Shown here one piece after another: positions 21,001 to 24,000 of a DNA stretch of 50,880 nt; positions within the stretch are counted from its first letter, which is position 1; each line of letters opens with the position of its first letter. The stretch lies in the UHGV virus genome UHGV-0174141. One strand, written 5' to 3'. The position numbers were made by a program. The DNA comes from a virus.

Positions 21001-24000
21001 CTGGCAATCACTTAACCGGAAGTATTCTGAACTTCAGCAGGAGTATTACCGGTTACGGCGCCCATTTAGCGTGTCGGTCACGGTGCCATATACCGACGTC
21101 TGGACACATAAGCCGGTTCAGTTTTATCCAGGTAAGCACCCATGCGAAAAACCTGCCGATATGCTTCAGCAGATCATTACTGCAAGCAGCCGGCCAGGGG
21201 ATGTCGTAGCTGATTTCTTTGCTGGTTCTGGTTCCACACTAAAGCAAGCTGCTCTGCTCGGGCGGAGTGGAATCGGTGTTGAACTGGAAACCGAGCGGTT
21301 TGAACAGACGGTCAGTGAAATACGCAATTTGCTTGAGCACCTACCACCACAACCAAATCCCTTGCCTTAGAGCTAAACCGGGCGTCAGCCAACGGATAAA
21401 CGTATCCGGAAAATTGAGATCGCAGGAACGACCAACAAACGGTAATCCGTATGGAGAATAACCCGTTGAGGAAGAGGCCTGGCCGGAACCGTAACCGGCA
21501 CTTATATGGCTGCGGGGCCAGCGTCTGAAGCGAATCACGATCACGATGCGAAAACTACATGTCCCAGCTGCGCGCAAAGTGACTTAAGGCAGGGCCACAA
21601 TTTGAATCTGCGACAACTTAGGTTGGTCGCTCCGTATCAGTAAGCGGATCCACCTGGCTCGCATTCGCGGGCCTTTTTCGTATCTGCGCCACGCTCGGCG
21701 TTATTTAACCACAGAGCCTTTCAGGGGTGAGCCATAGGGAATAGTCAGTGTGACTGTCTCTGTGGGCTGATCATTCCTGAGCGCTGGCTCACCCGCTAAA
21801 AGGAAAGTCACTATGTTTGGTATTTTTAAAAAGAAAGCCCGTAAAGCCGTTGTTGAAGTGAAAAAAATGGAAAACCGCGATGCCGTAGAAGCCACCGTCT
21901 GGGGAGCGTACTCGATTGCATACGCCGATGGTACCTGCGATGCAAAAGAGATTGCAGTGCTGGAGAAGACTATTTCGGCCCTCCCGGCATTCGCGCCATT
22001 TGCTGGTGAAATTGCCCAGATGAGTTCGAATATTCGCGCCCGCTATGAAGCATCACCACGTTCAGCCAACGCTCAGGCGTTGCGCGAACTGGCTGACGTT
22101 GCCGGGACGGATGACGCTGTCGATGTTCTTTGCCTGTGTCTTGATGTAGCTGATAACGACGGCATCGGGGAAGAAGAAGAGAAACAGCTGAAGAAAATTG
22201 CCCAGGCTCTGCAACTTCCATTGGACCAGTACCTGTGATCGGTAAACTTCGCTGGGCCGCAGCTGGGGTGCTTTTGTTTCTGGTGGTTGCTATCGACTTC
22301 ACCAGCAAAATGATGTCAATCCTGGCTGATGGCGTGCTGGTAGCCGGGGTAATCGCTTTGCTCTGGCCCCATATTAAACCCAGTGATTAGCACTGTGCAA
22401 AAGGCATCGTAATGGTGCCTTTGACAGAGTGTCAGTTATTGACGCCGCCTATGACTACATCCTAAATTATGCGTGTGGTGAATCCCCCTATGCGGAGGGG
22501 CATTGCCAGTCTGATATGTTTTTTTGCGCATTGCGAGTCGTCTGTGGACTGGCGGCGACTTACCGGGAGGCACCCGGCACCACACCTAATAAAAAATGAT
22601 GATAGCTGTAAGGCCCACTTCGGTGGGCTTTTTCTTTGGGCAAAAAAAAAGCCCGCATGGTTTCATGCAGGCAAGGCAGTTACATTTAGATTTTGTCCCG
22701 GTATATGTTTTTTTGTCCGGAAGTCGAAAGATACTGTCTCGAATACATTTTGTAAATAACGGATTCAAATCACAAGGCCATGCATTTGCATGGCTTTTTT
22801 ATTTGTGCCACCAGAGCATCATTCACTCTGTGCTTTGTCGTTAATCCATCTGGCGGCCATCCTAAAGGACTATCTGCTGAGTTCTTTTTTCAGAGGTTGC
22901 ATTTTCTTCAGTACCTCATCTGAATTAGTGACTGAGAAACCCGTCGGGAAAAATAGCATTCCATCGGATGGATGTTCATCGTGCCAGTGCTTCGTGGTGG
23001 CCATCGTATGAGCGTCGAGATAACTGGTGTAAGCATCAAGGAGAGCGTTTTTCCTGCGCCTCGGGGCGTAAGGTAGCAACTGGTTGAAATCAGCATCGCT
23101 GATAAGCCTGAATGGATAAGAGCCTCCTTCAATAGCCTCAATTTCGCTTAGCAACTTTCCCCGCAGTGGTGCGGAATGCTTCCTGAACTCTGCCTTACGT
23201 GACGAATGGTTACTGATTAGTGACGGAATAAAGAGCCCTAGCAGTGTCAGTATCACTCCGATTACTGAAATAATTTCCATGAGATTTCCCTATGCCTGAT
23301 TTTATTTATTCAGTATTACCCGTGGTGGGATTCGGTTTTTCTTGTTTTGGTCTTGGATACATCCTTGGCTTCGTACGCGGACGAGACTGAACAAGAAGAA
23401 TAAATCCGTCTGAGAGGGTGGTGAACCCTGATATTTTTACAGTGATTTTTGGTGGCTGTCACCTGGCGGCCATCCTATTTTCCCCTCGTTCTGAGAGGAT
23501 CCACAGCAATAGAGGGGGCTAAATGTCCGATCCTGTTTCTGCCACAACGATAGCAGCTGGTGGACTGTTCGGCGCCAGCCTATTCGGCCTGGCAACTGGT
23601 ATTGATTACGGCGTGGTATTTGGCGCGTTTGCTGGTGCGGTGTTCTATGTCGCAACGGCGGTGAATATTAGCCGCATAAAGCTGGTGGGCTATTTCATCA
23701 CTTCATTCATATTCGGTGTGATTGGTGCTCCTCTGCTGGGGTCGTACTTCTCAAAGTGGACTGGTTACAACGACAGGCCGCTTGATGCACTCGGAGCGGT
23801 AATCGTGGCAGCCATAGCTATAAAGCTGCTGACTTTCGTAAACAGTCAGGACCTGGGTAGCCTGTTTGGGATTCTCTCTCGCTTACGTGGAGGAGGGACA
23901 AGCAATGGTAACAAGTGATCCGAGCGCAATCATTAATGCGGTGATATGCGCTGTAATTGTTGTTGTGCTGATGTTCTACCGGCGTGATGGGTCAAGACAC

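Follow-up and report, generated by a model that had tools for sequence, protein, structure and literature searches.

A covarying RNA leader with three long-range pairings precedes unrelated cargo genes in Enterobacterales phages and may act as a portable translational gate

The virus genome UHGV-0174141, analyzed here as one stretch of 50,880 nucleotides (nt; ‘the window’, to which all positions refer), carries two copies of a structured RNA leader, each running into the start codon of an accessory, or cargo, gene. The full element is about 130 nt long, and both copies lie on the + strand (copy A, 21686-21815; copy B, 36342-36472). Their cargo genes are unrelated: copy A leads into a TerB/TciA gene, whereas copy B leads into a KilA-N + P63C antirepressor-type gene. 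Judging from sequence matches, the family is present in hundreds of phages and prophages of Enterobacterales. With moderate confidence, we favor the reading that the leader is a portable, self-locking translational gate acting in cis on accessory genes carried by heavily transcribed read-through mRNAs. A leader that sequesters the Shine-Dalgarno (SD) sequence is a known kind of RNA; the fold described here, its family and its spread are uncatalogued.

A first-pass annotation of the window had proposed that the same element stands ahead of the ATGs at 21813 and 36470, and it was right: a three-block pattern, CCTTTCAGG..CTGTGGGC..CTAAAAGG, matches the + strand at 21717-21803 and 36370-36459 only, with 0.00 matches expected in 100 dinucleotide-preserving shuffles, and a covariance model of the family (R1, see below) matches both sites. 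It had also correctly read the two downstream genes as unrelated and each copy as following a terminator-like hairpin. The start that it gave for copy A, 21711, cuts the element short, leaving out a 5′ hairpin (P0) and part of the strand that we call alpha 5′. Both copies fold into a long hairpin, as that annotation had expected, with energies of -41.9 (copy A) and -43.3 kcal/mol (copy B) and z = -2.6 and -3.8, respectively, and in both the 3′ arm holds the SD sequence AAAGG, 8-10 nt upstream of the ATG. The parts of copy A and its surroundings are as follows.

21656-21680, + strand: intrinsic-terminator-like hairpin (21656-21673) with T-run, upstream of the leader
21686-21701, + strand: hairpin P0, GCGCC-ACGCTC-GGCGT, whose loop CGCTC (21692-21696) pairs with J3
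21709-21716, + strand: alpha 5′ strand, CCACAGAG, directly abutting P1
21717-21803, + strand: long hairpin, with P1 (CCTTT/AAAGG), P2 of 10 bp, an internal loop and P2b/P3
21750-21755, + strand: beta strand of the apical loop, GTGACT
21758-21765, + strand: alpha 3′ strand in the apical loop, CTCTGTGG
21779-21784, + strand: internal loop J3, GAGCGC, of which GAGCG pairs with the P0 loop (gamma)
21799-21803, + strand: SD sequence AAAGG, the 3′ strand of P1
21806-21811, + strand: beta strand in the SD-AUG spacer, AGTCAC (6 bp; shuffle p about 0.015)
21813-22238, + strand: cargo gene tciA (TerB domain), followed by tciB (DUF3927) at 22235-22390, a gene order like that of tciAB in P1

Copy B is built in the same order.

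36299-36326, + strand: terminator-like hairpin (36299-36320) with T-run, upstream of the leader
36342-36356, + strand: hairpin P0, GCGC-ATCTCAC-GCGC, whose loop TCTCAC (36347-36352) pairs with J3
36363-36369, + strand: alpha 5′ strand, CACAGAA
36370-36459, + strand: long hairpin, with P1, a C.A mismatch, P1′, a bulge, P2, J3, P2b and P3
36405-36410, + strand: beta strand of the apical loop, GTCGGT (ACCGA/TCGGT, the sixth pair being G.U)
36415-36421, + strand: alpha 3′ strand, TTCTGTG
36434-36439, + strand: internal loop J3, GTGAGA, which pairs with the P0 loop (gamma)
36455-36459, + strand: SD sequence AAAGG in P1
36464-36469, + strand: beta strand in the SD-AUG spacer, ACCGAT
36470-37225, + strand: cargo gene of KilA-N + P63C antirepressor type

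The long hairpin of copy A likewise has the conserved C.A mismatch, P1′ (AG/CT) and a 1-nt bulge between P1 and P2, and P2 of copy B is 11 bp long, including one G.U pair.

The general anatomy of the element was obtained by comparing about 100 unique members. From 5′ to 3′, a terminator is usually followed by P0, a short A/C-rich spacer, the alpha 5′ strand, P1, a C.N mismatch, the 2-bp helix P1′, a 1-nt bulge, P2 (10-12 bp), J3 (an asymmetric internal loop with 6 nt on its 3′ side), P2b, P3, and an apical loop that bears the beta and alpha strands. P1 is CCUUU:AAAGG, the SD sequence is its 3′ strand in every member, and the distance from the end of the hairpin to the AUG is 7-11 nt across members. 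The terminator is found upstream in 99 of 114 unique contexts, and a P0-like hairpin, ending 13-18 nt before P1, in 108 of them.

The helices of the hairpin covary. In a model-fitted alignment, 93.3% of its cells are paired, versus 29-55% when the partners are slid, and double-sided changes occur in 13 of its 28 pairs; in an anchored alignment, nine of the 12 P1′/P2 pairs are compensatory. In 80 of 88 elements, the fold is better on the + strand than on the minus strand, and 12% of pairs are G.U, so the element is read as RNA on the + strand; the earlier view of a conserved structured RNA on this strand thereby gains firm ground from the covariation and strand asymmetry of the family. The base opposite the C of the mismatch (C18) is A in 95 members, C in 10, T in nine and G in none, and the 1-nt bulge comes next.

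Three long-range pairings, which we call alpha, gamma and beta, connect this hairpin to its flanks. In alpha, the partner of the apical loop is the stretch of 7-8 nt directly 5′ of P1. Given a plain MAFFT alignment, RNAalifold proposed this helix without help, and it saw alpha only, because the plain MAFFT alignments (A2 and A3) misplace gaps in P2. Three of eight alpha pairs are compensatory in the anchored alignment, and six compensatory variants were found: CCACAGAG/CTCTGTGG; CACAGAA/TTCTGTG; CCGCAGA/TCTGCGG; CCGTAGAG/CTCTACGG, in Erwinia and Salmonella jumbo phages; CGAGAG/CTCTCG, in Enterobacter phage CobraSix; and CCACAA/TTGTGG, which amounts to a matched 2-nt deletion.

Gamma joins the P0 loop to the 6-nt internal loop J3, which was placed by type-based offsets, definitions by minimum-energy fold or helix walk being unreliable. 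When the whole hairpin is searched for the best Watson-Crick complement to the P0 loop, the J3 site comes out on top in 94 of 98 contexts, and there are at least seven compensatory variants (CGCTC/GAGCG, CGCCC/GGGCG, TGCCC/GGGCA, TCTCAC/GTGAGA, TCACAC/GTGTGA, TCGCAC/GTGCGA and GGCTC/GAGCC). By formal count, four of six gamma pairs are compensatory, with a score of 0.70 versus 0.19 in shuffles, and slid controls pair at 28-63%. Only gamma counts as evidence for P0, because the P0 stems were selected as paired.

Beta links the spacer between the SD sequence and the AUG to apical-loop bases that immediately precede the alpha strand. This pairing is present in both window copies, and its variants include AGTCAC/GTGACT, AAAGTCAC/GTGACTTT, ACCGAT/ATCGGT, GATCAC/GTGATC and ACGTAAT/ATTACGT, as well as TCGCTA/TAGCGA changing to TCGCC/GGCGA. 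The strands shared by alpha, beta and P1 would make the base of the hairpin a three-way junction: the alpha 5′ strand runs into the 5′ strand of P1, the beta tail continues the 3′ strand of P1, and the loop strand of beta would lead into the alpha 3′ strand. For such a junction to close, the long hairpin would have to fold back at J3, exactly the site at which gamma docks P0. The helical stacks are similar in length in all types, about 18-20 layers for P1 + P2 and about 15-21 for alpha + P3 + P2b.

The spread of the family was followed with a covariance model, patterns and similarity searches. The seed of model R1 consisted of nine sequences of the TciA and jumbo-phage types only, excluding the type of copy B (type B) and type C. 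R1 scores 128 bits at copy A and 39.4 bits at copy B (E about 3e-9, its E-values being rough), as compared with 12-16 bits on the minus strands (16 at the copy A locus and 12 at the copy B locus), and an R1 search revealed no third copy in the window. Over 100 sources, the model retrieved 82 elements, of all types, at E<=1e-6, and zero chance pattern matches. Two more exact copies of the alpha 3′ strand motif TCTGTGGGC lie inside coding regions of the window (20529-20537 and 34577-34585, + strand) and are probably due to chance, with 14 matches at <=1 mismatch against 11.8 expected.

In BLAST searches of phage records, the copy B leader matched 310 records (303 at >=80% coverage) and the copy A leader 177. 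The copy B matches lie upstream of ‘ant’ in Shiga toxin (Stx) phages of the Stx1/Stx2 groups (VT2-Sakai, phi24B and BP-4795), and in Salmonella ST64B and PS34; among the copy A matches are phages of Klebsiella and E. coli as well as Erwinia jumbo phages. The copy B leader is found in 606 of 5426 complete E. coli genomes, at a median of three places and at up to eight. A loose two-block pattern recovered at least 120 stretches from IMG/VR, and a strict pattern, applied to one genome per species, recovered 14 loci, in Enterobacterales, with Siccibacter, Mixta, Pantoea, Serratia, Leclercia, Citrobacter, Rosenbergiella, Entomohabitans and Pseudocitrobacter among the genera. One 2.7-kb contig from a metagenome-assembled genome labelled Bacillota carries a degenerate leader (L225 1399-1488) and tciA, with a mismatch in alpha and a weakened P2; it is probably a mis-binned fragment of an enterobacterial phage.

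When loci were picked solely by TciA similarity, 76 of 80 carried the leader (69 canonical and seven variant), and these relatives, at 96-100% similarity only, added two new leader variants. The distant terB genes of P1, N4-like, Pseudomonas, Vibrio and Pantoea phages have no leader upstream. Regular expressions missed several divergent variants (L129-L133 and L166, upstream of tciA at 701; and L162), one with P1 as CUUUU/AAGAG, alpha as CCACAA/TTGTGG and beta as ACGTAAT/ATTACGT, and another with alpha as CCGCAGA/TCTGCGG; further hidden diversity of the leader is likely. Two shortened leaders (L081, ~4678-4790, and L107, ~3043-3110) keep the part from the 5′ strand of P1 through the apical loop and diverge at J3, which suggests recombination or deletion breakpoints within the element.

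The first-pass annotation recognized no named riboswitch, thermometer or leader, and database searches agree. At both loci, Rfam 15 gave no relevant match at a permissive E<=10, its hits being at chance level (SNORD19 and mir-587), and the C4, IsrK, ROSE, FourU and Lambda_thermo models gave none at that threshold. A scan of the whole window at gathering thresholds returned only STnc100 and tRNA-like matches, both elsewhere, and a dedicated search found no tRNA or tmRNA. Searches of the literature by topic and by sequence strings turned up no description of the leader. Several candidates were set aside: the target of 24B_1 (PMC4426718) lies within d_ant; neither the paper on HnrS (bioRxiv 2025.11.27.690950) nor that on anti-small RNAs (Tree 2014; PMC4104026) describes the leader; the same holds for the paper on Gifsy antirepressors (PMC3121763); and STnc1310 of ST64B (PMC7067206) is near cI, whereas the ST64B leader follows the lysis genes.

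At least nine unrelated protein families are encoded downstream of the leader, namely TerB/TciA, three KilA-N architectures, Rha + ORF11CD3, P22_AR_N + ORF11CD3, T5orf172/MUG113, HNH_3 and a TAXI-type binding protein, and most of the cargo consists of antirepressors (including ant of Shiga-toxin phages) or TerB/TciA. Thus, of the earlier suggestion of a portable translational control module, portability is well supported by the variety of cargo, and translational control is what the anatomy of the RNA points to. A TAXI/NMT1-type solute-binding protein gene directly follows the leader at one locus (L005, 4775-5400), and a gene of this kind is also found just past terB-tciB in Erwinia jumbo phages (L122, 1973-2488; L209, 1075-1220), forming a recurring pair.

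The suggestion that each copy heads an autonomous cargo unit fared less well. A moron, in the definition of Juhala et al. (2000), as cited in PMC4104026, is an autonomous promoter-gene-terminator unit. In copies A and B, a search for sigma-70-like sites only found no such promoter between the terminator and the SD sequence; ideas of a sigma-54 promoter and of an internal promoter were checked by eye and dropped. In several members, P0 begins 1-8 nt past the T-run of the terminator, which leaves no room for a promoter. These observations suggest that the unit depends on read-through of the terminator. Matches to the consensus of a LexA box or of a boxA/boxB nut site were also absent.

The genomic positions of the leader are in keeping with such dependence. 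Copy A is downstream of the gene for the Q antiterminator, and copy B lies between the tail chaperone and tape-measure genes; in Stx phages, the leader sits between R and Rz, in ST64B and CobraSix after the lysis genes, and in lytic jumbo phages behind tRNA genes. The leader is located in antitermination-dependent operons, and all of these contexts require terminator read-through. 

Some details of these neighborhoods deserve mention. In the window (18891-19845, + strand), the Q gene (PF03589) is directly followed by a strong Q-proximal terminator (19822-19841), and between Q and the tciA leader are a small open reading frame, a second terminator (20131-20148) and a DNA methylase gene (20291-21370). 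Whether copy A is downstream of the true late promoter is uncertain, a better promoter-like site being found at 22439, at an STnc100 match. A leader directly downstream of tRNA genes was seen in jumbo phages and in phage JLK-2012 (L122, 1082-1157; L207, 1-232; L209, 189-264; L213, 175-248); similarly, tciABC of phage P1 is followed by a tRNA gene, and tciA modules tend to adjoin tRNA clusters.

In the gate that we favor, the leader would most likely be made only on read-through (late lytic) transcripts, as it follows a terminator in antitermination operons and no promoter of its own was found. Each 3′ segment would meet a partner that has already been transcribed, so that the RNA could zip up during transcription; the SD sequence would be buried in P1 and the spacer in beta before ribosomes load, with gamma clamping the sharp bend at J3. 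Potentially harmful cargo (antirepressors, TciA and nucleases) would then be translated at a very low level until the gate is opened. A lock meant to be opened is what sequence conservation argues for: G never stands opposite C18, a bulge is adjacent, and an imperfect helix is thereby conserved beside the SD sequence. Candidate triggers of release are melting, cleavage by RNase III and a host factor.

Several points weigh against this reading. Repression of translation, like every functional statement made here, is what we infer from the anatomy of the RNA. The first-pass expectation that the arms occlude the SD sequence stands as far as its place in the basal helix of every member is concerned, but the nested hairpin occludes it weakly: in a nested model at 37 C, opening the SD sequence costs 1.8 kcal/mol in copy A and 7.2 kcal/mol in copy B, so the simple hairpin would be a weak block, and it is the three tertiary helices that probably make the lock tight. 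Beta is absent from the jumbo-phage and CobraSix types and from most members of type C. The padded alignments (A4 and A8) were anchored with knowledge of the structure, and the sequences are related, hence the independent events behind the covariation counts are limited in number, roughly 5-8 per helix. Alpha crosses the long hairpin and meets P1 without a linker, so that the two may be unable to coexist. In nested folding, the alpha conformer is less stable than the full hairpin by 8.9 kcal/mol on average, and alpha is the minimum-energy fold of nascent RNA cut just past the alpha 3′ strand in five of six types.

The missing linker, together with a nascent fold that contains alpha and a full fold that contains the hairpin, makes a two-state switch possible. 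Alpha would form first on the nascent RNA and leave the SD arm free (ON), and the stable hairpin would later displace it (OFF); we regard this as unlikely though credible, and judge alike the version in which the switch is a kinetic timer that allows a brief burst of translation per transcript. Both the alpha and the hairpin helices covary, as a switch would have them do, and nested folding of the Stx ant leader over a longer context favors alpha. However, every member favors the hairpin, by 3-16 kcal/mol, the SD sequence is often re-paired with UUCCU of the 3′ arm in the alpha conformer, and gamma and beta suit one closed fold better. The duplex of P1, P1′ and P2 is also open to another interpretation: 17-20 layers long, heading a gene within long late transcripts and carrying conserved mismatches and bulges like those of natural RNase III sites, it might be cut by RNase III or another nuclease, which would free the cargo mRNA, remove the anti-SD arm and activate translation. 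We consider such a site quite unlikely, as three covarying tertiary pairings and a conserved P0 would be superfluous for it and the duplex is interrupted beside the SD sequence. Equally doubtful is a sensor, either an RNA thermometer or a riboregulator responsive to Mg2+, a ligand or a protein, in which the signal would melt or displace the tertiary contacts and free the SD sequence. The A/U-rich anti-SD helix, the mismatch that is never repaired, the adjacent bulge and an elaborate fold of the kind typical of sensor RNAs speak for it; very few invariant unpaired bases are available for a ligand pocket, the energy of opening the SD sequence shifts by about 1-2 kcal/mol between 28 and 42 C (nested model, without tertiary pairs), the hosts include gut bacteria as well as plant-associated Erwinia and Pantoea, and the ROSE, FourU and Lambda_thermo models of Rfam find nothing. 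A broader conception, that of a compact triple-pseudoknotted sensor RNA (for temperature, ions, a ligand or a host factor) serving as a portable ON/OFF gate for dangerous phage cargo, is speculative, and we give it the same modest credence as the switch.

The complementarities might also act between molecules, if the leader were processed into a trans antisense RNA, like P1 c4 or P4 CI, whose loop pairs with the flanks of sibling copies, blocks their ribosome-binding sites (RBS) and so mediates prophage cross-talk. The 5′ flank and the SD-AUG spacer both have complements in the loop, arranged in the right order, siblings are at hand in E. coli genomes with their several leaders, and both c4 and sar are known antisense regulators of ant (PMC12197685). 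We nevertheless find this very unlikely: Rfam C4 and IsrK do not match at E<=10, no processing signals were seen, and the partners neighbor each other in one molecule, so that cis pairing should win over trans. Moreover, the alpha, beta and gamma sequences differ between the two types within one prophage, which would limit any cross-talk in trans to copies of the same type. The only rival clearly disfavored by the data is a DNA-level feature, be it a promoter/operator, a recombination site or a cassette boundary, and we hold it to be extremely improbable. Inverted repeats are present, the shortened copies (L081 and L107) end at J3, and the element marks the left end of exchangeable cargo modules; set against this are the strand asymmetry (tolerated G.U pairs, better + strand folding in 80 of 88 elements, and model scores of 128/39 bits on the + strand against 16/12 bits on the minus strand), non-nested compensatory pairings that keep complementarity and not sequence, the lack of a promoter consensus, and fixed spacing to the SD sequence and the AUG.

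The translational gate has relatives in several known systems. The P1/P7 c4 and P22 sar RNAs also block the ribosome-binding region of antirepressor genes at the RNA level, and c4 is complementary to sites around the RBS, as beta is here. RNase P processes c4 into a stable trans-acting RNA of ~77 nt. A loop complementary to sites flanking or covering the RBS, a feature of C4, is found in the leader through beta and alpha, but in cis: c4 and sar are separate small RNAs that pair intermolecularly, whereas the partners in the leader belong to one molecule, and the leader also precedes genes other than antirepressors (TciA, HNH and T5orf172). In P22, ant on read-through late transcripts is silenced by sar RNA (PMC12197685), a precedent for the need to silence ant on late transcripts. 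An upstream arm that sequesters the RBS, with OFF as the default state, is likewise shared with the rpoS leader and with the isrK-orf45-anrP mRNA of Gifsy-1, and the regulated Gifsy-1 operon encodes an antirepressor made by terminator read-through (PMC4825925). Unlike an IsrK-type leader, the element has no conserved small RNA gene upstream, the pre-terminator sequences are unrelated between loci, and IsrK itself is not matched; the rpoS and isrK leaders, in turn, have no counterpart of alpha, beta or gamma.

Pseudoknots at or near the RBS set translation initiation in rpsO/S15, alpha-operon S4, T4 gene 32 and IncI-alpha/IncB repZ/repA. The leader resembles these operators in having a pseudoknot that involves or lies beside the RBS, but those bind the regulated protein or open by translation of a leader peptide. 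Autogenous control is not indicated, with TerB, KilA-N, Rha, P22_AR_N, T5orf172, HNH and TAXI solute-binding proteins, all unrelated, downstream of the same leader. Nor is there a conserved leader peptide, because the reading frame is broken by indels: an ATG in type B opens a frame of 19-27 codons, but indels shift it, and type A has no ATG. A CsrA site was similarly rejected; CAGGAUG of type B resembles the consensus, but its bases are paired and differ in type A.

The FourU, ROSE and lambda cIII thermometers share with the leader a U-rich anti-SD strand on the SD sequence, in a helix weakened by a conserved mismatch and bulge, and such a weak, imperfect helix is what P1 (CCUUU/AAAGG) with its mismatch and bulge amounts to. 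However, the leader is much larger, has three tertiary contacts and a weak predicted temperature response, and is matched by none of the Rfam models. A riboswitch is not suggested, since nearly all conserved bases lie in covarying helices and the downstream families, at least nine, are unrelated. Finally, a long interrupted duplex that covers the RBS and heads a gene in a polycistronic phage transcript is known from the lambda N leader and the RNase III sites of T7, and RNase III cleavage of the lambda N leader has been proposed to remove the anti-SD arm and activate translation. The likeness to the leader lies in that duplex, cleavage here being only a candidate event, and RNase III sites, typically about 20 bp of coaxial duplex, need no loop-flank or loop-bulge pairings.

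If the gate model is true, one uncatalogued RNA fold controls antirepressor output in hundreds of temperate phages of E. coli, Salmonella, Klebsiella, Enterobacter, Pantoea and Erwinia. The ant genes of Stx1/Stx2 phages would be among its targets, and genomes of the enterohemorrhagic E. coli (EHEC) type hold several copies; because antirepressors decide the induction of co-resident prophages, the leader may be a point at which toxin-phage induction and prophage cross-talk are controlled. If a sensor were at work, its opening would release antirepressors and couple the lytic growth of one phage to the induction of co-resident prophages, including Shiga-toxin phages. For RNA biology, it is unusual to find, ahead of Stx-phage antirepressors, a 130-nt RNA in which four long-range pairings covary independently and for which no ligand is known. 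For genome annotation, the leader is a strong marker of the starts of cargo genes and could become a new RNA family.

Other features of the window lie near copy A or at a distance from both leaders. Just past tciB is the STnc100 match mentioned above (Rfam, 99 bits; 22444-22641, + strand), which ends in strong terminators and has a promoter-like TTGACG-18-TAAATT at 22439-22468; it may be a late-promoter leader RNA of the prophage. This region also holds TCTGTGGAC (22541), which is similar to the alpha 3′ strand of the leader. Between tciB and this match, a hairpin at 22403-22425 (+ strand; GGCATCGTAATGGTGCC + TTTGAC) is nearly identical to one that precedes the ant leader of Stx phages (GGCACCGTAATGATGCC + TTTGTC; L001), and the shared hairpin looks like a recurring terminator-like module boundary. 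Lastly, a 126-nt match to the Rfam tRNA model (40 bits) at 7965-8090 on the minus strand, in which ARAGORN finds no tRNA, may be a tRNA-like remnant or a tRNA with an insertion.

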